IMG/VR virus record: IMGVR_UViG_3300048768_000066
Coordinates: 1 to 50,668 of that record
Source of the DNA: a virus
Lineage: Duplodnaviria > Caudoviricetes
Strand: one strand, 5' to 3'
Length of the DNA: 50,668 bases
Shown here: positions 1,831 to 50,668 of the stretch, piece by piece
Numbering within the stretch: the first letter of the stretch is position 1
How the letters are laid out: the number at the start of each line of letters is the position of its first letter
Program-made: the position numbers and the translations under genes
The notes under the pieces: model-generated
The model's input: the letters and a program-made list of their open reading frames with translations, nothing else
Database searches by the model: none
Told to the model about the DNA's origin: nothing

Positions 1831-2127
1831 ATGGAGTATAACATGGATAAAAAAACCATCAAAAGTAAATATGTGCCGGTAAGTCTTACCGAACAATTCA
1901 TTTTGAACTATGCCGCCCTGCCCCCGGAATTTGACAGTTGGCGATATTATCGCGTTGAATATGGGGGCTGCAATGAGGATTGCTTCAAGGAGATGCCAAT
2001 TTTTCTTCCCCCCGCAGCAGACCCCGAGATTATTGAATTGCTGTTTGAATTATGGCAGGCGCGGACCCATAACCGTCGGAAAAAGATAAAGCATAAAATC
2101 ATTGAGGAATTGGAGATATACTTATGA
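1831..2127 (+). CDS. Hypothetical protein
   Basis: ORF coupled to the phosphoesterase start. Confidence 0.55.
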   Translation: MEYNMDKKTIKSKYVPVSLTEQFILNYAALPPEFDSWRYYRVEYGGCNEDCFKEMPIFLPPAADPEIIELLFELWQARTHNRRKKIKHKIIEELEIYL

Positions 2128-3092
2128 CAAAATCTGAAATTGTCCAAGATGCAATCAGGAGGTTTGAACATTTACCAACGCGGACGCTGGCCCGTTACAT
2201 CCTACATAATTACGGGCCTGTCTTTGATGGAAACCTCGAAAATATTCGAGGGATAATTCGTTATCATGTCGGCAAAAGTGGAGGTGGAAACAGGAAATCA
2301 AAAAAAGACTTTATCCACCACTCCCCCCAAGCGTTACCTCCAACGTGGCGCAAAACCCGGAATCCTTACAAGCTCCCCGTTGGCCTCTGGCTTGTCCTGT
2401 CTGATCTCCATATCCCATTTCATGAACCAAAGCCCATTGAAACCGCCGTGAAGTTCGGGCAGGCGGAAAAGGTGACGGGAATTCTGTTCAATGGGGATCT
2501 CCAGGACTGCGCGTCGATCTCCTACTGGCCTTCGGGCAGGAAACGGGATTTCGATAAAGAGGTTGAAATATTCATTGATTTCCTTGATTTCATTGACCAC
2601 GAATTTCCAAAAGTCTTGAAAGTTTACAAACCCGGAAATCATGAATATCGCTTGCCGCGTTATTACCAGCAGAAGGCCCCGGAAATGATCGGCCTCCCCC
2701 TCCAGGCCGTCGATGATATCCTCGGCCTTGAATATAGGGGAATCGAGTTTTTAGACTACCATCAAATCGTTATGGCGGGGAAACTGCCCATCATTCACGG
2801 CCATGAAATCGCAAATATCAATCGTGCCGTCAATCCAGCTCGCGGTTTATTCATGCGCACAAAATCATGGGCGGCGTGCTCGCATTGCCATACCACGAGT
2901 GAACATACAGCTAAAAATATACAAGGGAATTTACTTACCTGCTGGTCATTCGGCTGCCTTTCGGATCTTTCCCCTGATTTTAACCCTTATGGAAACGATT
3001 GGAACTGGGGCGTTGCTTTAGTAAATGTTGAGAAAAATGGAGATTTTGAAGTTCAAAACAGGCGCATCCTCCCGAGCGGGAAAATTGCATAA
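2124..3092 (+). CDS. Calcineurin-like metallophosphoesterase with N-terminal helical extension
   Basis: SDLH, NGD, GNHE, HGH and HCH motifs in canonical order. Confidence 0.85.
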   Translation: MTKSEIVQDAIRRFEHLPTRTLARYILHNYGPVFDGNLENIRGIIRYHVGKSGGGNRKSKKDFIHHSPQALPPTWRKTRNPYKLPVGLWLVLSDLHIPFHEPKPIETAVKFGQAEKVTGILFNGDLQDCASISYWPSGRKRDFDKEVEIFIDFLDFIDHEFPKVLKVYKPGNHEYRLPRYYQQKAPEMIGLPLQAVDDILGLEYRGIEFLDYHQIVMAGKLPIIHGHEIANINRAVNPARGLFMRTKSWAACSHCHTTSEHTAKNIQGNLLTCWSFGCLSDLSPDFNPYGNDWNWGVALVNVEKNGDFEVQNRRILPSGKIA

Positions 3093-3122
3093 AAAAAGGG
3101 CGAGGGATTTCTCCCCCGCCCT
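3091..3122 (-). terminator. Intrinsic terminator between convergent operons
   Basis: Minus strand AGGGCGGGGGA-GAAA-TCCCTCGCCCT followed by T7. Confidence 0.8.
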
Positions 3123-5404: not shown

Positions 5405-5546
5405 TTCTCCGGCACATTTCACAGCCTGCAAGCTGTATTCCCTGCCATCCGCCCCGCCGTTTCTCCCTGGACTAACCCCAGGTGCCCCCGGTCAAGTGGT
5501 TCTGGATTCTCTTGATTTGGTTGTGAATGAGCTTTGCCTTATATGA

Positions 5547-5562
5547 TGCAACGCCCATGCCA
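5547..5562 (-). promoter_or_regulatory. Sigma54 (-24/-12) promoter for leftward early operon
   Basis: Minus strand TGGCATGGGCGTTGCA fits TGGCAY-N5-TTGCW; intergenic and correctly oriented. Confidence 0.75.
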
Positions 5563-5646
5563 AACCATAGGCCAACATCAGGAAAGCCGCGCCAGTCCTA
5601 CAAAAGAAAATTATCGTAGAACGAAAATAGAACGGATGCCATATCG

Positions 5647-5659
5647 TAAACGCTTGATA
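5647..5659 (-). promoter_or_regulatory. IHF-binding site
   Basis: Minus strand TATCAAGCGTTTA fits WATCAANNNNTTR. Confidence 0.6.
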
Positions 5660-5660
5660 C

Positions 5661-5795
5661 TGGATACAAAGTATCCGAAAACTGTTCAATAAGTATCCAA
5701 AAAGGTGGATACAAAGTATCCGAAAATAGTTTACATAACATCCGCCCATAATTAATTTCTTCAAAACTGGATACTAAGTGGATACTTTTTCCCCA
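5661..5795. promoter_or_regulatory. Array of 17-bp operator/enhancer-like palindromes
   Basis: TGGATACAAAGTATCCG at 5661 and 5706; degenerate copies at 5683, 5728 and 5779; 22-23 bp period. Confidence 0.75.
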
Positions 5796-5797
5796 TA

Positions 5798-5832
5798 ATT
5801 CCCCTTGACATGATACCAAAACGGCGTATGAT
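5798..5832 (+). promoter_or_regulatory. Sigma70-like promoter with ATTCCCC-extended -35
   Basis: TTGACA-16 nt-TATGAT. Confidence 0.6.
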
Positions 5833-5839
5833 ATAGGCC

Positions 5840-6082
5840 ATGGATCTGGAAGGGACAAGACAGGATCTGGTCAGGCTATTTCGTCAAGGGCGATTAGGTA
5901 TTGACGCCGAAGGTCTGCTTGAACTCCTGGACGACATCTATCAGGCCGACAGTGAATACAACTGGCCAACCGACAGGGATCTCATGAGACGGTGCCCATC
6001 ATGCCGGATACGGTATAGGATCACCGAAGCTCACCGCGAGCCTAAACTCTGCCCCTATTGCCACTTTCAAATCTTTTCTTAA
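5840..6082 (+). CDS. Zinc-ribbon protein, possible regulator
   Basis: CPSC...CPYC. Confidence 0.6.
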   Translation: MDLEGTRQDLVRLFRQGRLGIDAEGLLELLDDIYQADSEYNWPTDRDLMRRCPSCRIRYRITEAHREPKLCPYCHFQIFS

Positions 6083-6083
6083 A

Positions 6084-6119
6084 ATTCCCCTTGACAAATC
6101 AAAAAAACCGTGCTAATAT
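6084..6119 (+). promoter_or_regulatory. Sigma70-like promoter for the packaging/structural operon
   Basis: ATTCCCC-TTGACA-17 nt-TAATAT with TGn extended -10. Confidence 0.75.
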
Positions 6120-6234
6120 GTAATCATAAGACAGATGAAAATAGTGTCAATACCCTTTTCGAGTGCGTAAACCTTGTTCTTAATGCTGGCCCCAGCAGTA
6201 GCAAAGCGTTAGCGGAGCGAATAGGACCTCAAGC

Positions 6235-12395: not shown

Positions 12396-12545
12396 GTGCC
12401 TTTGTACTGTTTTGTCTGCAAGAAATGTGAGAAGATGTTTGAGGCGATTGTCCCTCTATCCGATTCTGACAAGGAAGTTAAGTGTCAGTACTGCGGGAAA
12501 CCGTTGAAAAAACTCATTACTGGTTGCGCGTTTAAGGTGAATTGA
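12396..12545 (+). CDS. FmdB-like zinc-ribbon protein (49 aa), not in ORF track
   Basis: MPLYCFVCKKCEKMFE...CQYCG...KKLI; GTG start, coupled to portal. Confidence 0.75.
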   Translation: MPLYCFVCKKCEKMFEAIVPLSDSDKEVKCQYCGKPLKKLITGCAFKVN

Positions 12546-14557
12546 TGTCTAAAAAGAAATCTCCACTCGAAGGCAAATTCGGACTGGCAGAGGGAATCAT
12601 AAAGAATCTCGTCATAGATTCCGAATATACTACGTGGAAATCGAATAACAACCAACAATATTCGGACTACGAAAGCGTGCTCGACATGGTTGAACTTGTC
12701 CGGTCGGAAAAGAATTACGACTGGAATTCAGATATTTTCATCGGGCTCCTTCTTTCGCACATGCTCACGGATTCCGCGACATGGGCTCAGCAAGACTTTC
12801 AGTCCCGCGACTTCGTTGACATTTACCTTGAAGGGAATCAGCCGGACGACAAGATGAAGGCGAAAGCTGCGAAGACCCTAATCAATCAGCTGTTGAATAT
12901 TAAAGATGTTTACCACTTCCATAAGAGGATCAGGGCTCGCACGATAAACTGGCTCTACGGCCAAGTATATGCGATCATGTGGCCCGAGCAGGAAGTGATG
13001 ACGAGAACGGTTCAACCGCCTCCGCTATCTGTTATTGTACGGGATTTTGATGAGATGGGGAATGTTGTCCCGAAGCAAGTGAGTGTCCCGCAAGAACCGC
13101 AACAAGTAGAAAATGTGGTCGTGGATCGGATCAATTATGATGTGTTTGACGCTCGGAATGTTTTTACCGATTTTAGCTATTCGTATTCAATCCAGCAGAA
13201 ATCCTCTGTGATATTGAGGTCAGAGAAGCGATTTAGTCAGATCAAAGCGGACGGGGCAAAGTTTGGATACTTCAATATGGACGTTTTGCAGGAGAAGTTA
13301 TTCAGCGGTGAAAAGAACCGCAGGGTCAAGTCTTCCGTTGAAACGGATACTTCAAAAGAATCATTCAATAAATTAGGCGGAAGAGAAGGGACAAAACAGA
13401 CTGTATTCCAGCAGGTTGACCCTTCCATGGATATTCTGGATCGGTACGGGTCAATATGGGCAAAAGTAAAAGAACGAGACCCGGAGACTCAACTGCCCAT
13501 TACAATCGAGCCGGGATATGATGATAATGGAGTCCTGGCGGACAAAGCTGAAATGGTTGAGGCTATCATAACCTTTGCCGGAAGCGGATCTGACTTTACC
13601 TTGATCGGGTTCCGGCCCACCTGGGCAATAGACGCTAAAGGGAAACCCTACAAGCCCATCATCCGAGGATGGTGTTACATCCACCCGACAAAGGATACTG
13701 GACTGAGCGACGGCAAAAACCTACGGGAAATGAACATCGCTGCAAACGATACGTTCAATATCTCCAACGACCGGGTAATGCTGGCCACCCTGCCGTCCAT
13801 GATCGGGCGGCGGGATGCTATCGAAAACAATCCAACGGTATTAATCAAACCGGAACACATTACCCTTGTTGAGAATATTGAAACAGACTTGAAGGAATTG
13901 AAGATTCGGGACAACGTGCAGGGAGCAATGGAGACCCTTTCCTTCATCAAGTCCCAATCTTCAGAACTCGATGCGATATTCCCTACCACGATGGGCGGAC
14001 TGCCCGAAAAGACCTCCACGACGGCGACGGCTATCGCGGGTGCCGAGGGAAGGACAAACGCTCGCGGGAATCTAAAGGGACTCACTTGGACGTACACTTT
14101 TGATGTTGAGTTCTATCAGATGATGCTCCAGATGGCGTACAGGTTTATGCGCCCGGAGACCATAGAGAAGATGCTTGGAAAAGAGCTCTCTCAGTTCTTC
14201 GATCCGAATTCCGACTATACCTATGTGCCTATTTCTGAGAACATCGAAGGCGAACACCAGAAGATGCGGAAAGTACAGGTGTGGGACCAAATGATGGGCC
14301 GGATCATGGGCCTTGCAAAGATCGTGCCAAAAGAAATGCTTCCTATTATTTCCATGATAATCGGTGAAGAGGCTCTGTTGATGGGGAGCGAGTATCGGGA
14401 GATTGCAACGATGCTAAGGCAACTTTCTAAGGCGCAACCTCAACCGGAAGGACAGGGAGCGACATCGACAGAAGACGGGAAACCTCCGGCGGTGAGTAAC
14501 CAGAATCAGGTCGAGCAGTCAACCCCGGAGATGGGCGCGAGAGGAACAATGCAATGA
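12545..14557 (+). CDS. Portal protein
   Basis: ~670 aa, follows terL, TTATAI motif of P22/T7-like portals, low-complexity C-tail. Confidence 0.8.
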   Translation: MSKKKSPLEGKFGLAEGIIKNLVIDSEYTTWKSNNNQQYSDYESVLDMVELVRSEKNYDWNSDIFIGLLLSHMLTDSATWAQQDFQSRDFVDIYLEGNQPDDKMKAKAAKTLINQLLNIKDVYHFHKRIRARTINWLYGQVYAIMWPEQEVMTRTVQPPPLSVIVRDFDEMGNVVPKQVSVPQEPQQVENVVVDRINYDVFDARNVFTDFSYSYSIQQKSSVILRSEKRFSQIKADGAKFGYFNMDVLQEKLFSGEKNRRVKSSVETDTSKESFNKLGGREGTKQTVFQQVDPSMDILDRYGSIWAKVKERDPETQLPITIEPGYDDNGVLADKAEMVEAIITFAGSGSDFTLIGFRPTWAIDAKGKPYKPIIRGWCYIHPTKDTGLSDGKNLREMNIAANDTFNISNDRVMLATLPSMIGRRDAIENNPTVLIKPEHITLVENIETDLKELKIRDNVQGAMETLSFIKSQSSELDAIFPTTMGGLPEKTSTTATAIAGAEGRTNARGNLKGLTWTYTFDVEFYQMMLQMAYRFMRPETIEKMLGKELSQFFDPNSDYTYVPISENIEGEHQKMRKVQVWDQMMGRIMGLAKIVPKEMLPIISMIIGEEALLMGSEYREIATMLRQLSKAQPQPEGQGATSTEDGKPPAVSNQNQVEQSTPEMGARGTMQ

Positions 14558-43738: not shown

Positions 43739-44263
43739 TTAGATTAAGTTTACCTTGGCTCCTTCCCCGAAATATTTGATAGCTGCATTATTATAAGCCA
43801 TTGCCGCATCTTTGGGATTATCGAAATATCCAAGATGAAATCGCTTTCGTTTGACACCTATTTTACTTGTAAATTTTTGCTCTTTAATATTCCAACTTAC
43901 TCCTTGATATTTTGAACGTATCATGTTTTGGGTATTTTGTGATTGTGTGCAATTCCTCAGATTTACCTTTTGGTTATTTAGGCCATTATGGTCAAGATGA
44001 TCGACCACGAATCCGACAGGTGTTTTCATAATTATTCTGTGCATAAAAATTACCTTTTTGTTTTCGACCCTGACCGCATATTTGTATTTTTCCCGACCAG
44101 CAAGACACCATTTCCATTGGGATAATAAATTGTAATCATCAGCATCTACTATCGCTACCTTTCCTTGCGATAGGGATATTTCTCTGAATCCTGTCCCGAT
44201 TCCAGTAGGGGCTATGGCATTTTGGACATACATTGATTTTTGGCTTCCGGGGAGACCATTCAT
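43739..44263 (-). CDS. HNH-AP2 homing-endonuclease-like protein
   Basis: ISLSQGKVAIVD, MHRII...VDHLDHNGLNNQKVNLR, AP2 motif SKYQGV...HLGYF...AAMAYN. Confidence 0.9.
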   Translation of the reverse strand: MNGLPGSQKSMYVQNAIAPTGIGTGFREISLSQGKVAIVDADDYNLLSQWKWCLAGREKYKYAVRVENKKVIFMHRIIMKTPVGFVVDHLDHNGLNNQKVNLRNCTQSQNTQNMIRSKYQGVSWNIKEQKFTSKIGVKRKRFHLGYFDNPKDAAMAYNNAAIKYFGEGAKVNLI

Positions 44264-46388: not shown

Positions 46389-46604
46389 TCACGGTGCTAC
46401 CTTTGCAGTACATATCCAGGTCCGGGGATCGGCAAATTCACCCTGCCATTCTAAGGGGTAGTGAGGATCGTCTTTTTCATACTTAAATGACGCTGCAATC
46501 AAGGGGCAGAAGAGGTCCTTTTGTGGATCATCCTTCACGCATTGGAAGCAATTTCGTTCCATGAATATATCCCCTTCGGCACCGTTGGATGGTCTGAATT
46601 TCAT
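46389..46604 (-). CDS. Cys-rich phage protein
   Basis: FRPSNGAEG..F...C..C...CP...W...CT pattern; GGAGGT RBS. Confidence 0.65.
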   Translation of the reverse strand: MKFRPSNGAEGDIFMERNCFQCVKDDPQKDLFCPLIAASFKYEKDDPHYPLEWQGEFADPRTWICTAKVAP

Positions 46605-46630
46605 GCATCCACCTCCTTTCCTATCCTCTG

Positions 46631-46885
46631 TCATAAATCGAAAAATTCTCTGTAGTTTTCCAGGATGGCAAGATCGTACTGATCTACTTTTGCCGCTATA
46701 AGATCATCCCATTTTAATCCAGATTCACTTATTAGTAATTCTGGCCCGTCAGATCCCAGAAGAAAGAGCGTTGCGATACAATAAGCAATCCCTTGAGTAA
46801 ATTCGTCTCCTTTATTCTTACGACTCGGACCCTTTTGCAGGTTCTGATAACATCTCCAGAGCTCATCTTTTGACATGACGTTCAT
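46631..46885 (-). CDS. Hypothetical protein
   Basis: GGAGG RBS before MNVMS. Confidence 0.55.
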   Translation of the reverse strand: MNVMSKDELWRCYQNLQKGPSRKNKGDEFTQGIAYCIATLFLLGSDGPELLISESGLKWDDLIAAKVDQYDLAILENYREFFDL

Positions 46886-46887
46886 GA

Positions 46888-47142
46888 TTATTTCCCCTCC
46901 TCGTATGGAACTTCTTTCAGCGGCTTCCCGCAGTAGCAGCAGAATTTCATTCCATTTTCTGTGGGTCCGCTGTCGGTGAAAACGAAGGCATTGTCGCAGG
47001 ATGTAAACCATGTTCCCTCGTCATCCTCTTTCCATTCACAAGGGATCATGGGGGCTTTCTCCTTGCCGAGTTCCCGCCATAGCCGGTCCTGATTTTTCGG
47101 ACTCCGTCGCGTTCTCATTTTATTTCTCTCCCATACATGCAA
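46888..47142 (-). CDS. Zinc-finger accessory protein
   Basis: CEW...WFTSC...F...KFCCYCGK. Confidence 0.65.
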   Translation of the reverse strand: MHVWERNKMRTRRSPKNQDRLWRELGKEKAPMIPCEWKEDDEGTWFTSCDNAFVFTDSGPTENGMKFCCYCGKPLKEVPYEEGK

Positions 47143-47527
47143 TTCAACAGGCGGTTTTCCTCATATCGCCTCCAGATGTCAGGAGCATTTTCCTTCATTA
47201 TTTCCAACGGATTCTTCATATTTCCTCACCGCCTTCTTGATTTCTTTTGCCGTCTGTCCTTCCAATGCTTCCGCCTGTCGGTATGCGCGTCACTATGGAA
47301 AATGAGCCACAAGGCGATTGAAATTCCAATCGAAGCCATTAAGTAGTAATACCATTCAGGAAACATTTTTCACCCCCTCCTCACCGTCCTGCCGATCATC
47401 CCCGTGTTGCCAAAACAGTCCCTGATCCACTGGCACAACAGGCCGAGCCCGTGGAGGAGCAGGATACCGCCGCCGATGCCGATCAGGATCACTCCGCAAA
47501 CTAAGATTGCTTCGCTGAATTCTGGAT

Positions 47528-47737
47528 TCATAGCCCTCTCTCCTTTGCCAGTTGCGTCATTTTAGAGTGAAAAGCGCGACTCCATTTTGCAAACCACGCC
47601 GCCCTTGCCGCCTCGTGGCCGCCGGGGAAGCGCACTCTATGCGCCTTGTTGGCGTATCGTTCCGCCTCCGGGATCAGGAGATTCCTGGCCCTGCTGTATG
47701 CAATATCCCGGTCATCGCATTTTTGAAAATTCCTCAT
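47528..47737 (-). CDS. Hypothetical protein
   Basis: Coupled to the YopX stop, GGAGG RBS. Confidence 0.55.
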   Translation of the reverse strand: MRNFQKCDDRDIAYSRARNLLIPEAERYANKAHRVRFPGGHEAARAAWFAKWSRAFHSKMTQLAKERGL

Positions 47738-48141
47738 TTTGCCTCCACCAGTTCCAAGTTCTCGTAGATATTGCCGATGACCTCCATGTTCCAATTCCCC
47801 GCTTTTCCTGTGCAGACATTTTCACCGAGAATCATGTTATAGAATCCGCACCGGAACGCCCCATCCTTAAAATAGACGGTGTTGGGAGCAGAATCTACCG
47901 GCTCGTCCGTTTCGTATTGGCTTTGAACACGGACAATATCCCCCTCGTAAATCTCCTTTCCGTTCTTGTCCAAAAGGCCGGTGAACTGCATGAGAACCGC
48001 ATCATCCCAATCTATCCATCTGAACCCATCATCATTAACTTGCACCCCCGCCCTTTTCCCCCATTCAGTAAAGACAATCTGTGTAACAGATAAGATTTTC
48101 TTTTGTATTTTATCCCACGCCTTGAACTTAATTTCCCTCAT
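47734..48141 (-). CDS. YopX family protein
   Basis: MREIKFKAWD...MQFTGLLDKNGKEIYEGDIV...EVIGNIYEN. Confidence 0.9.
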   Translation of the reverse strand: MREIKFKAWDKIQKKILSVTQIVFTEWGKRAGVQVNDDGFRWIDWDDAVLMQFTGLLDKNGKEIYEGDIVRVQSQYETDEPVDSAPNTVYFKDGAFRCGFYNMILGENVCTGKAGNWNMEVIGNIYENLELVEAK

Positions 48142-48336
48142 CCCAGCCTCCTTTAAGTGGGGAAGGCGGCTACTACTCCGCCCTCCCCGTTCACAGGTAC
48201 TTCCGCTTCAACCTCAAAGAACAAAGATTCGACGCGAGCCCTCCTCTCCTAATCTGGGCGACCGCTGGTGATGCTCTAAACATCTGCTTGTCCTGACTTG
48301 CTCCAGGCAACGAATCGCCCATTTTCCGTTTTATCC

Positions 48337-48352
48337 TGCAATCAGTGTGCCA
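48337..48352 (-). promoter_or_regulatory. Sigma54 promoter for the leftward recombination/accessory operon
   Basis: Minus strand TGGCACACTGATTGCA, full consensus. Confidence 0.8.
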
Positions 48353-48380
48353 GGTTGAGTGATTTGTTGGCAATCAATAT

Positions 48381-48393
48381 AATCAAATGCTTA
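48381..48393 (+). promoter_or_regulatory. IHF-binding site
   Basis: AATCAAATGCTTA fits WATCAANNNNTTR; lies between promoter and palindromes. Confidence 0.65.
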
Positions 48394-48425
48394 TGAATTT
48401 TTCGTGTTGCAAGCCGATCACTATG

Positions 48426-48464
48426 TGGGGAATTATTACCCGTTTTCTGGGGAAAAATACCACA
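48426..48464. promoter_or_regulatory. Tandem 17-bp enhancer (UAS)-like sites
   Basis: TGGGGAATTATTACCCG and TGGGGAAAAATACCACA, 22 bp apart. Confidence 0.55.
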
Positions 48465-48527
48465 CTTTATGCCACAATACCATAGACCATAAAACATGCG
48501 TTTCAATGATATTCGCCGTTTGCGCAA

Positions 48528-48543
48528 TGGCATAGTTATTGCT
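48528..48543 (+). promoter_or_regulatory. Sigma54 promoter for the rightward operon
   Basis: TGGCATAGTTATTGCT fits TGGCAY-N5-TTGCW. Confidence 0.7.
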
Positions 48544-48556
48544 TAAGTTATGGGTC

Positions 48557-48751
48557 ATGAAATCACGCCATACTAAACCACCAACAAAGAAATGTCCCAA
48601 GTGCGGCGGCTTTTTGGTTTTTGGAGGAGTAATATACGGACGACCAGCTCCCCATTTAGGGACATGCGTTAATTGCGGGTTTTCCAGTGACTCTGAAAGT
48701 TTCTACGACGCCGTTCACAAGGTCCGGCGCAGCGTGAGAGGGGATGAATGA
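48557..48751 (+). CDS. Zinc-ribbon protein
   Basis: CPKCGG...CVNCG. Confidence 0.65.
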   Translation: MKSRHTKPPTKKCPKCGGFLVFGGVIYGRPAPHLGTCVNCGFSSDSESFYDAVHKVRRSVRGDE

Positions 48752-49098
48752 ATAATCGTGTCCCTTCAACTCCTTGGAATGTTGGGTATCAAAAGAACCC
48801 TCTTCCCTCCTTAATGGGAGACATTTTTGATAACCAAAAGGAACCGCGAAAGCGGTTGTCTGGTGTGCGCCGTGCCGGATGTAAAATAGAGTTAACGGCC
48901 AAAATTAAACCCAAACCTGCCCCTCACGCCTCTGGCATTGCTAAGAACCAGAAAAGTCCAAGCGAACCACGAGGGGCACCCGTTGGCCATAAATGCAACG
49001 GCAATATGCGGTATCGCAATCTCATATTTTGGCGGGAAGATGGGTCGTTATGGAAAAGGGGAGGGAAGGGCAATGAAAAGATATATCCTCGGGATTGA
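48748..49098 (+). CDS. Hypothetical basic protein
   Basis: Coupled ORF. Confidence 0.45.
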   Translation: MNNRVPSTPWNVGYQKNPLPSLMGDIFDNQKEPRKRLSGVRRAGCKIELTAKIKPKPAPHASGIAKNQKSPSEPRGAPVGHKCNGNMRYRNLIFWREDGSLWKRGGKGNEKIYPRD

Positions 49099-49555
49099 TC
49101 CGGGCACGGTCCAATCGGCTTTCGTCTATTGGGACGCGGACCAGAAGCGCATCATCGACAAGGGAATCCTGCCTAACGAAGACATGCTTCATTATATCAT
49201 CAATTATTACAAACTGGGATCAAATATGGATGTCATGGTGATTGAGGGCATCGCCAGTTTCGGGATGCCTGTCGGCAAAGAGGTCTTCGCCACCTGCATT
49301 TGGATAGGACGTTTCTGGCAGGCTTGTCAGTATCCGGTCCGCCTCCTCTACCGCCGGGAGGTCAAAATGTTCCTGTGCGGCAATATGAGGGCAAAAGACG
49401 GCAATATCCGGCAGGCATTGATGGATATGCTTGAAAAGGATGCCTGTAAGGGCGTCCATAAGGATATGTGGAGTGCCCTTAGCATATGCATAACTTATGC
49501 ATATAAAGCACAGCGCGAGACGGACGGGGAAATCGTTAAGGAGACGGGAATATGA
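49073..49555 (+). CDS. RuvC-like Holliday junction resolvase
   Basis: ILGIDPG, VIE, HKDMWSAL acidic triad layout. Confidence 0.8.
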   Translation: MKRYILGIDPGTVQSAFVYWDADQKRIIDKGILPNEDMLHYIINYYKLGSNMDVMVIEGIASFGMPVGKEVFATCIWIGRFWQACQYPVRLLYRREVKMFLCGNMRAKDGNIRQALMDMLEKDACKGVHKDMWSALSICITYAYKAQRETDGEIVKETGI

Positions 49556-49719
49556 ATGCACTTTATGATGAAATCGACAAGCTTAGGGCGGATATTGAAC
49601 ACTTAGCACGGCTTTGCCTATCCCACGGCCTGATCTCCCGTGGAAAGTTTGCATCCCTGCTGAAAATCGACAGGTGTGATGTCGATGAAAAAATGAAGGA
49701 GATAGCGGAGAGAATATGA
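49552..49719 (+). CDS. Small possible HTH protein (55 aa), not in ORF track
   Basis: GLISRGKFASLLKIDR; ATGA overlaps at both ends. Confidence 0.55.
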   Translation: MNALYDEIDKLRADIEHLARLCLSHGLISRGKFASLLKIDRCDVDEKMKEIAERI

Positions 49720-49964
49720 TAAACACTATATCGCGCAAGGTGAAAAGACAAGAGGATCATGTAATTTCCGTCACTTGCGACAAATGCAAAAAAGTTATAC
49801 ACACCGATGATTACACGGAAATTCAAGAAATGCACCATGTACGCTTTACGGGGGGATACGGATCGGTCTTCGGCGATGAATCCAAAGTCGAGTGTGACTT
49901 GTGCCAGCAATGCCTCAAGGAAGTGATCGGGCAATATTGCAGAGTGGACGGCGAGGCCCTATGA
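49716..49964 (+). CDS. Zinc-finger protein
   Basis: CDKCKK...GGYGSVFGD...DLCQQC. Confidence 0.7.
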   Translation: MINTISRKVKRQEDHVISVTCDKCKKVIHTDDYTEIQEMHHVRFTGGYGSVFGDESKVECDLCQQCLKEVIGQYCRVDGEAL

Positions 49965-50194
49965 CTCGCCGCTACCTTGCTCTCCTCGGCGCCATCATCC
50001 TCCTGGTGGCGATCTACTGCGGCCTGATGTGGATGCTGCTCCAGCCAGCGCCGAAGCCGACCAGACCTCCTGAATGGTCGCCTGCGGAGAAAGGGTGGGT
50101 CATTCACCGCATGCAGGTACACGGGATCTGGGGCTGTGAATGCGATGGAAATAATTGCTACTTTTATCGTAATGGCAAGAAATGTCCATTGTGA
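49961..50194 (+). CDS. Small N-anchored membrane protein
   Basis: MTRRYLALLGAIILLVAIYCGLMWMLL; Cys-rich C-terminus. Confidence 0.6.
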   Translation: MTRRYLALLGAIILLVAIYCGLMWMLLQPAPKPTRPPEWSPAEKGWVIHRMQVHGIWGCECDGNNCYFYRNGKKCPL

Positions 50195-50196
50195 AG

Positions 50197-50231
50197 ATTC
50201 CCCTTGACAATGCCATTAAAGGGAGTATTGT
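50197..50231 (+). promoter_or_regulatory. Sigma70-like promoter upstream of the replication gene
   Basis: ATTCCCC-TTGACA-16 nt-TATTGT. Confidence 0.6.
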
Positions 50232-50283
50232 GGATCTGCAACGATAAATGAGGCTGAGTGTGATTAACCAAAAACCAACAATT

Positions 50284-50344
50284 AAGGCCCGCCCAGATGA
50301 TAGACTCATCCTCTATCGTTGCAATCTGACGCGGGTCTTTTTTG
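50284..50344 (+). terminator. Terminator/attenuator hairpin in the replication gene leader
   Basis: AAGGCCCGC...CAGAT.../...ATCTG...GCGGGTCTT followed by a T-tract. Confidence 0.6.
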
Positions 50345-50363
50345 TTGGTGAAGGGTTGTCGCT

Positions 50364-50668
50364 ATGAAATGGTTTAGGTTTTGGACTGATACCGTGAACG
50401 ATGTTAAAATGCTCCAATTATCAGATTATGAATACCGGATTTGGACATATCTTTTGGCTTACGCTTCCGAAGTCAACTCACTTTCAGGTGAACTTCAAAT
50501 CACTTTCACATTACTTTCACTTCACTTTCACCAGCGTTTCAATCTTTTTTCACGCGCGATTGAAACGTTTCAAAAGGTGGGTTTGATTACTATATCCCAA
50601 GAAGGATATATTGTAATAACTAATTGGACTAAAAGACAATTCAAATCTGATAATGCTTATGAACGGGT
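50364..50668 (+). CDS. Replication initiator, N-terminal part (continues into 1-677)
   Basis: MKWFRFWTDTVNDVKMLQLSDYEYRIWTYLLAYA..., phage replisome-organiser N-terminal pattern. Confidence 0.8.
   Translation, partial: MKWFRFWTDTVNDVKMLQLSDYEYRIWTYLLAYASEVNSLSGELQITFTLLSLHFHQRFNLFSRAIETFQKVGLITISQEGYIVITNWTKRQFKSDNAYER
50542..50668. repeat. Terminal direct repeat, copy 2
   Basis: Identical to 1-127. Confidence 0.95.

Follow-up and report, generated by a model that had tools for sequence, protein, structure and literature searches.

Candidate sigma-54-type promoters at the heads of three operons in an uncultured phage genome with no recognisable activator gene

Introduction

Can a bacteriophage place part of its gene expression under promoters that host RNA polymerase cannot open unaided? 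The question is raised by IMG/VR virus record IMGVR_UViG_3300048768_000066, the 50,668-bp genome of an uncultured member of the Caudoviricetes, which we analysed over its whole length (the window). Between positions 48142 and 48556 of the window, two divergent operons meet at a control region carrying two back-to-back matches to TGGCAY-N5-TTGCW, the -24/-12 pattern of promoters recognised by sigma-54 (RpoN). Among bacterial promoters, only the sigma-54 class stays completely silent until an ATP-driven activator acts. Textbook phage programmes depend on the host's sigma-70 or on sigma factors or polymerases of the phage's own. Our literature search, whose scope left most subscription journals outside, found no published description of sigma-54 promoters serving as the promoters of phage operons.

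An original prediction, made from the letters of the sequence, held that transcription in this phage is gated by a host enhancer-binding protein acting from an enhancer shared between the two promoters, and that this arrangement is the phage's developmental switch. Here, we follow up that proposal with pattern searches, shuffled-sequence statistics, profile searches and a survey of other uncultured viral genomes. We judge it likely that the intergenic elements are real sigma-54 promoters, whichever activator serves them. We also lean towards the more specific reading that they are activated by a host enhancer-binding protein looping from sites between the promoters, aided on the left by integration host factor (IHF). 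Because sigma-54 promoters need an activator that this phage does not encode in recognisable form, some of its genes are probably not expressed until the host cell supplies a signal.

Results

Both elements of the 48-kb control region can be read directly where the original prediction placed them, and a pattern search recovers them as well. The leftward element occupies 48337..48352 on the minus strand (TGGCACACTGATTGCA) with a predicted start near 48326, and the rightward element occupies 48528..48543 on the plus strand (TGGCATAGTTATTGCT) with a predicted start near 48554; a gap of exactly 175 bp separates them. A third element at 5547..5562 on the minus strand (TGGCATGGGCGTTGCA; predicted start near 5536) heads a leftward block of nine small open reading frames (ORFs) that runs from 5431 down to 3178. 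Searching the 50,668-bp genome for TGGCAYN5TTGCW yields four exact matches, namely the three that had been seen by eye and one more at 14314..14329 on the minus strand (TGGCACGATCTTTGCA). This fourth copy lies antisense within a 671-codon ORF (12542-14557), so the description of the motifs as uniformly intergenic and operon-heading holds for three of the four. This intragenic copy may have arisen by chance, may bind sigma-54 within the gene or may be a promoter for antisense transcription.

Four exact matches are far more than base composition provides. The expected number is 0.19 in dinucleotide shuffles, none of 100 of which reached four, and 0.06 in block shuffles (n = 50). When GG and GC are held invariant and the other seven consensus positions are scored, the four sites score 7/7 and no site scores 6/7, while the number of sites with at least 5/7 is at background level (13 with the four perfect sites counted in; 11.1 expected). 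Such an all-or-nothing pattern is what selection for a defined site yields. Placement is just as selective: the genome has only two divergent control regions, 48142-48556 and 5432-5839, together 823 bp, and these hold three of the four motifs, each pointing toward its adjacent operon. The Poisson probability of finding at least three motifs in those 823 bp is about 5e-9. In all four motifs GG and GC stand exactly 10 bp apart, the spacing expected of a -24/-12 promoter. The 5-nt spacers of the intergenic copies differ (ACTGA, AGTTA and GGGCG), leaving only the consensus positions in common; thus the elements are not copies of one another or pieces of duplicated DNA.

The DNA upstream of both leftward elements has a feature that is frequent, though not obligatory, in sigma-54 control regions. 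An IHF consensus (pattern WATCAANNNNTTR; the site itself reads AATCAAATGCTTA) was found by pattern search at 48381..48393 on the plus strand, as originally reported, with its centre ~61 bp upstream of the predicted leftward start at 48326. A second match on the minus strand at 5647..5659 (TATCAAGCGTTTA) sits between the third element and a group of palindromes, ~117 bp upstream of where that element's transcript is predicted to begin (5536). The pattern occurs five times genome-wide against 2.8 expected, and two of the five sites lie just upstream of the two leftward sigma-54-type elements; locally, 3.5% of dinucleotide shuffles of the 48-kb region and 0.45% of those of the 5.5-kb region contain it. 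The second site was sought only after the first had been seen, which makes it supportive rather than a blind test.

Two related 17-bp sites lie about midway between the divergent elements of the 48-kb region, and direct reading bears out the positions originally given for them. The predicted leftward and rightward starts lie ~108 and ~120 bp, respectively, from site 1 (48426..48442, TGGGGAATTATTACCCG) and ~130 and ~98 bp from site 2 (48448..48464, TGGGGAAAAATACCACA). The two sites agree at 11 of 17 positions, including a 7-nt core, their first positions are 22 bp apart, and their joint centre at 48445 is 5 bp off 48440, the midpoint of the two predicted starts. These distances fall in the range of roughly 80-150 bp that is usual for activator binding, and the two sites are candidate activator-binding sites on positional inference; to call them a shared central enhancer, as the original prediction did, goes beyond that.

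The 5.5-kb region has a different array. Two perfect 15-bp palindromes (GGATACAAAGTATCC) start at 5662 and 5707, 45 bp apart (array 5662..5721); from the predicted start at 5536 the upstream distances are 133 and 178 bp. GGATAC/GTATCC half-sites continue to 5790 (array 5655-5795), toward the neighbouring sigma-70-type promoter described below. Lying between a sigma-54-type and a sigma-70-type promoter, these half-sites form a candidate regulator array. The candidate activator sites match no activator consensus that we could name, and a pattern search of the viral-contig collection for the sigma-54 motif joined to the GGATAC palindrome gave no match.

The positions of the first genes relative to the elements are informative about the predicted messages. 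The rightward operon begins with a 64-residue zinc-ribbon gene at 48557..48751 on the plus strand, which we take as real because its product matches a protein (40% identity over 47 residues, E = 2.7e-7) of L001, the one relative that shares gene order with this phage. Its ATG lies 15 nt past the C of the -12 GC, which corresponds to a position of about +4 relative to the predicted sigma-54 start, and has no Shine-Dalgarno motif; a ribosome site is present at 36 of the 43 other gene starts examined, by a crude string test in which one of the 43 starts was mis-set by 3 nt. The same geometry appears at sigma-70-type promoters: ATG 5840 lies 7 nt past the -10 hexamer TATGAT and has no ribosome site, predicting a leaderless message, and the first rightward gene of L001 starts 7 nt after TATCGT. 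This leaderless spacing is a habit of the lineage. The original prediction listed the nearly leaderless rightward transcript as a caveat; the spacing is as it described, but we regard it as weak support for the element, since the -12 sequence sits where the promoter of a leaderless message should.

On the left, a 43-codon ORF at 48191..48322 on the minus strand is a putative gene whose start codon, the ATG at 48322, follows the C of the leftward -12 sequence by 16 nt. The first clear gene of the leftward operon is the YopX-family gene at 47734..48141 on the minus strand, which has a strong AGGAGG ribosome site. The predicted leader before it (48142-48326) folds with z = -1.86 and has no terminator-like tail. 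It contains a strong GC-rich hairpin just ahead of the YopX ribosome site (48160-48190, GGGGAAGGCGG ... CCGCCCTCCCC), which has no U-tract and hence is not terminator-like.

The phage also carries predicted promoters of a sharply different, near-consensus sigma-70-type class. A 13-mer, ATTCCCCTTGACA, has three genome copies, each followed after N16 or N17 by a -10-like TAnnnT hexamer. Copy 1 (5798..5832, plus strand; promoter at 5805, N16, TATGAT, 11/12) heads the structural block; copy 2 (6084..6119, plus strand; promoter at 6091, N17, TAATAT) lies just downstream of it; and copy 3 (50197..50231, plus strand; promoter at 50204, N16, TATTGT) precedes the replication-initiation gene at 50364. 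The genome would accordingly hold two promoter classes with three members each. The ATTCCCCTTGACA class is absent from the 48-kb control region, and for both the 48-kb and the 5.5-kb leftward operons the best sigma-70 site in the operon's own intergenic region reaches only 9/12. Genome-wide, sigma-70-like sites with at least 10/12 barely exceed chance (16 against 9.8 in 30 shuffles, maximum 18). The replication and virion genes have sigma-70-type promoters of their own and are independent of the sigma-54-type sites, so to call sigma-54 the developmental switch of this phage overstates its part. The statistics, the placement and orientation, and the IHF sites fit the reading of the elements as sigma-54 promoters, which would gate some operons and not the whole programme.

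Two further observations concern these promoters. The ATTCCCC conserved upstream of the -35 in the ATTCCCCTTGACA class may be a regulator site. A minus-strand TTGACA-16-TATGAT (11/12) at 6123-6150, which overlaps the region where the plus-strand promoter at 6091 would start its transcripts, would give RNA antisense to an ORF at 5840-6082.

No recognisable regulator of either kind of switch was found in the genome, as the original prediction had stated for GAFTGA proteins, sigma factors and CI-like repressors. Six-frame profile searches of the record gave no match to Sigma54_activat (PF00158) at E 0.001 or better, and none to Sigma54_DBD (PF04552), Sigma70_r2, HTH_3 (PF01381), HTH_8, Bac_DNA_binding (the IHF/HU family) or Phage_integrase; the proteins flanking the control region gave no helix-turn-helix (HTH) match, and a string search of the genome found nothing resembling GAFTGA. 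The sole Walker-A motif in a supported gene belongs to a Sak4/AAA_24 recombination ATPase. The genome therefore has neither the PF00158 gene with GAFTGA that would mark a phage-encoded sigma-54 regulon nor the HTH genes that flank divergent sigma-70 promoters in a lambda-type CI/Cro switch.

We looked for the same layout elsewhere by surveying IMG/VR for divergent pairs of the motif separated by 160-190 bp, with convergent pairs as a control. The survey matched at least 118 divergent and at least 120 convergent loci; both counts are lower bounds and so say nothing about a preference in orientation. Among the matches listed, isolated divergent pairs lay wholly intergenic, that is, wholly outside ORFs of at least 70 codons, in 15 of 38 cases, compared with 3 of 27 convergent pairs (Fisher p = 0.013). 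Isolated intergenic divergent pairs occur in at least 11 other lineages. Several of them (L072, L092 and L041/L127) have tandem repeats between the motifs, and some of the intergenic pairs have an IHF consensus. Five other phage records with intergenic divergent pairs, two of them at least 98% complete, also gave no PF00158 match, and no protein is common to this phage and the divergent-pair records that were fetched. Dense arrays dominate the matches listed, with 8-13 perfect motifs 20-40 bp apart in alternating or single orientation, on unrelated contigs (L054 4790-5010 and L073 2040-2480; also L079, L084, L209 and L252); such arrays might serve as decoys or sponges for sigma-54 or as platforms for protein binding. 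In one contig, L030, the DNA between a divergent pair (2901-3111) has GTTATCCACA three times, twice in the same orientation and once inverted. The repeat contains the DnaA-box consensus, which suggests an origin-like region.

Searches by protein in viral-contig and metagenome-contig collections found no close relatives. The YopX protein matched nothing in viral contigs; the RuvC-like protein matched two loci in viral contigs and two in metagenome contigs (L001's contig and a 1,081-bp fragment); the Sak4-like protein matched eight loci, and a 549-residue ORF two remote ones. Via the RuvC-like and Sak4-like proteins we picked ten related phage records, six of them at least 93% complete. Their neighbouring-gene proteins are at most 61% identical to those of this phage, only single genes align as DNA, and blastn aligns the control regions with none of them. 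L001 alone is syntenic, with zinc-ribbon and RuvC-like genes followed by further shared genes in order.

Near-identical copies of the phage itself occur in contigs from several peat metagenome runs and one bioreactor run; no RNA run was listed among them. When contigs of four runs were compared with 46500-50668, the control region differed from the window at a single position, 48267, where one low-depth contig has T for G, and the comparison thus offers no informative natural variation. In tblastn searches of cultured phages the Sak4-like protein was best matched at 42% identity, by Cronobacter phage phiES15, and a 670-residue ORF had no match. Homologues of the Sak4-like protein in prophages (17 loci, 34-44% identity) are spread over several phyla; those at ~40% identity lie in assemblies of Proteobacteria, Elusimicrobia and Bdellovibrionales. 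This spread is not decisive, and it lends no support to the Desulfobacterota host that had been suggested.

The record is rated 100% complete. Its ends repeat over 127 bp (1-127 = 50542-50668). This length equals a common largest assembly word size, so the repeat probably reflects an assembly that is circular or permuted and does not mark the physical ends of the genome. A long rightward block from 5840 to about 41594 (plus strand) encodes a small-terminase-like HTH protein, a capsid-like protein, large ORFs without a family and an M15 peptidase. The leftward recombination block, on the minus strand from 48141 down to about 41743, encodes the YopX protein, the Sak4/AAA_24 ATPase and an HNH-AP2 endonuclease, the last a fusion of an HNH endonuclease and an AP2 DNA-binding domain (PF13392 + PF00847) at 43739-44263. 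The rightward block from 48557 (plus strand) crosses the record end and carries the zinc-ribbon protein, a RuvC-like resolvase, the replication initiation protein (50364 to 677 across the record end, plus strand) and a metallophosphoesterase at 2124-3092. Most early proteins belong to no Pfam family. No tRNA genes were found in the genome, and no Rfam family reached its gathering score.

Discussion

We propose that host RNA polymerase carrying sigma-54 would bind the three intergenic elements as a closed complex, silent until an AAA+ enhancer-binding protein touches it by DNA looping; the activator would presumably be host-derived, since the phage does not encode one. In the 48142-48556 region an activator bound about midway (48426-48464) would serve both back-to-back promoters, and an IHF bend would help the leftward one. 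The leftward promoter would drive the YopX, Sak4-like ATPase and HNH recombination block; the rightward promoter would drive the zinc-ribbon and RuvC-like resolvase block from an almost leaderless message; and the promoter at 5547-5562 would drive the nine small ORFs. Replication and virion genes would be served separately by the sigma-70-type class, and sigma-54 would therefore condition accessory and early blocks rather than the whole cycle.

Several findings weigh against this proposal. A conditional host activator for early-looking blocks is biologically odd in a phage without lysogeny genes. The core of the candidate central sites, GGGGAAW, is common, with 37 copies in the genome, and it is the only motif that recurs between the two control regions; because their candidate enhancers otherwise differ in sequence, a single activator for all three predicted promoters is not evident. 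The genome pattern search places no IHF consensus on the side of the rightward element in the 48-kb region. A sigma-70-like TTGAGT-17-TATAAT in that region (48355-48383, plus strand, 10/12), abutting the leftward -24 element, could serve the rightward operon. The dense arrays of the IMG/VR survey cannot all be promoters, and a match to the consensus does not by itself prove promoter function. Counted per sequence cluster among the matches listed, divergent pairs are intergenic in 11 of 28 clusters and convergent pairs in 3 of 23 (p = 0.058). Finally, the original prediction looked to conservation of the motif in relatives, and the exact motif occurs in none of the ten related records (a reversed control pattern occurs once). 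At the place of the rightward element, L001 (2549-2776) has a sigma-70-type promoter, TTGACA-N17-TATCGT, and a leaderless Cro/C1-type HTH gene (PF13443, E = 9.5e-6). Conservation is a weak test here, because the control region is not homologous in any relative; the region appears to have been replaced rather than to have drifted, and we count the motif's absence as mild evidence against sigma-54 control.

These points give room to other explanations. The promoters might be genuine sigma-54 promoters switched on by a phage-encoded factor of unrecognised type, which we think conceivable though unlikely. Most early proteins lack a Pfam family, and candidates exist among the small ones, for instance the zinc-ribbon protein with which each rightward operon begins. 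The strong sigma-70-type promoters need no activator, and their first product is an 80-residue zinc-ribbon protein; that class could fire first, with the sigma-54 class following as a delayed class. The differing repeats of the two control regions, perfect palindromes included, also look phage-specific. Set against this, we know of no activator of sigma-54 holoenzyme outside the AAA+ family, the sole supported Walker-A motif is that of the Sak4/AAA_24 recombination ATPase, and PF00158 has no match at the threshold used. In its favour, the authors of a preprint (10.64898/2026.10.06.757011) hypothesise a phage AAA+ protein that resembles bacterial enhancer-binding proteins but lacks both GAFTGA and a DNA-binding domain.

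It seems to us improbable that ordinary sigma-70 promoters transcribe these operons, with the -24/-12 matches binding nothing or binding sigma-54 holoenzyme unproductively. The 10/12 site at 48355, two weak leftward sites (9/12) and the strong leftward TTGACA-16-TATGAT at 6150-6123, upstream of the 5.5-kb region, could be used in this way, and the relatives, with L001's sigma-70-type promoter and no motif in ten records, point in the same direction. Such an account would leave three perfect operon-head motifs to a chance of ~5e-9, however, and would rely on sites of a quality that hardly exceeds the shuffled background. A start at 48390 would reach ATG 48557, which has no ribosome site, only behind a 167-nt leader, and the site at 6150 would need a ~680-nt leader antisense to an ORF. 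We give about the same small credence to the idea that the elements are binding sites rather than promoters, either operators for a phage protein or places where sigma-54 holoenzyme parks so as to block or insulate promoters or to titrate sigma-54. The occurrence of the same consensus in dense arrays of many unrelated IMG/VR contigs (for example, L054 and L073), the contact between the leftward -24 element and the -35 of the site at 48355, and the fourth perfect site inside a gene would all fit. In this genome, however, the sites are single and not arrayed, the intergenic ones each face the operon they head, the spacing to the first ATG parallels that of the leaderless sigma-70-type promoters, and the IHF sites and upstream repeats fit promoter architecture. 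On balance, we continue to favour sigma-54 promoters served by a host activator.

If this is right, blocks of phage genes are tied to a physiological signal of the host; if the activator is instead the phage's own, there is a new way of opening sigma-54 complexes. Either would be a new principle of phage control. The genome offers a clean test case, with three single, perfect operon-head sites, a contrasting sigma-70-type class and no activator gene, and the IMG/VR scan indicates that the layout recurs in unrelated uncultured phages. A bolder version, which we regard as speculative, is that the phage runs its early and accessory blocks through host sigma-54 polymerase on near-leaderless transcripts and throws the switch itself, by an activator of unrecognised type or by a host activator that infection triggers. 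Were that true, and shared by the other uncultured phages with this layout, sigma-54 hijacking would be a general and undescribed mode of phage control.

The closest bacterial parallels are the divergent sigma-54 operon pairs that share an activator region, often with IHF, such as hyc/hyp (FhlA) and zraP/zraSR (ZraR) of Escherichia coli. Like these, the phage region has -24/-12 elements set back-to-back, repeats ~100-130 bp from the predicted starts and an IHF consensus on one side. Unlike them, it is phage-borne, has no recognisable activator gene nearby or elsewhere in the genome, and places both ATGs 15-16 nt past the -12 C, predicting nearly leaderless messages. Promoters of the glnAp2 type, activated by NtrC, have tandem upstream sites at about -140 and -108. 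The candidate central sites of the phage are similarly arranged, 22 bp or two helical turns apart and centred ~98-130 bp upstream of the predicted starts, whereas their sequence, GGGGAAWWAT...ACC, is not the NtrC dyad. Among phages, the comparison is with the divergent early region of lambda type, as in L001. The phage studied here differs in having no HTH_3-type gene and in carrying -24/-12 elements where L001 has TTGACA-N17-TATCGT, yet its control region occupies the same map position, flanked by a recombination block that points leftward and by a zinc-ribbon, RuvC-like and replication block that points rightward, and like that of L001 its first rightward gene is predicted to be translated from a message with almost no leader.

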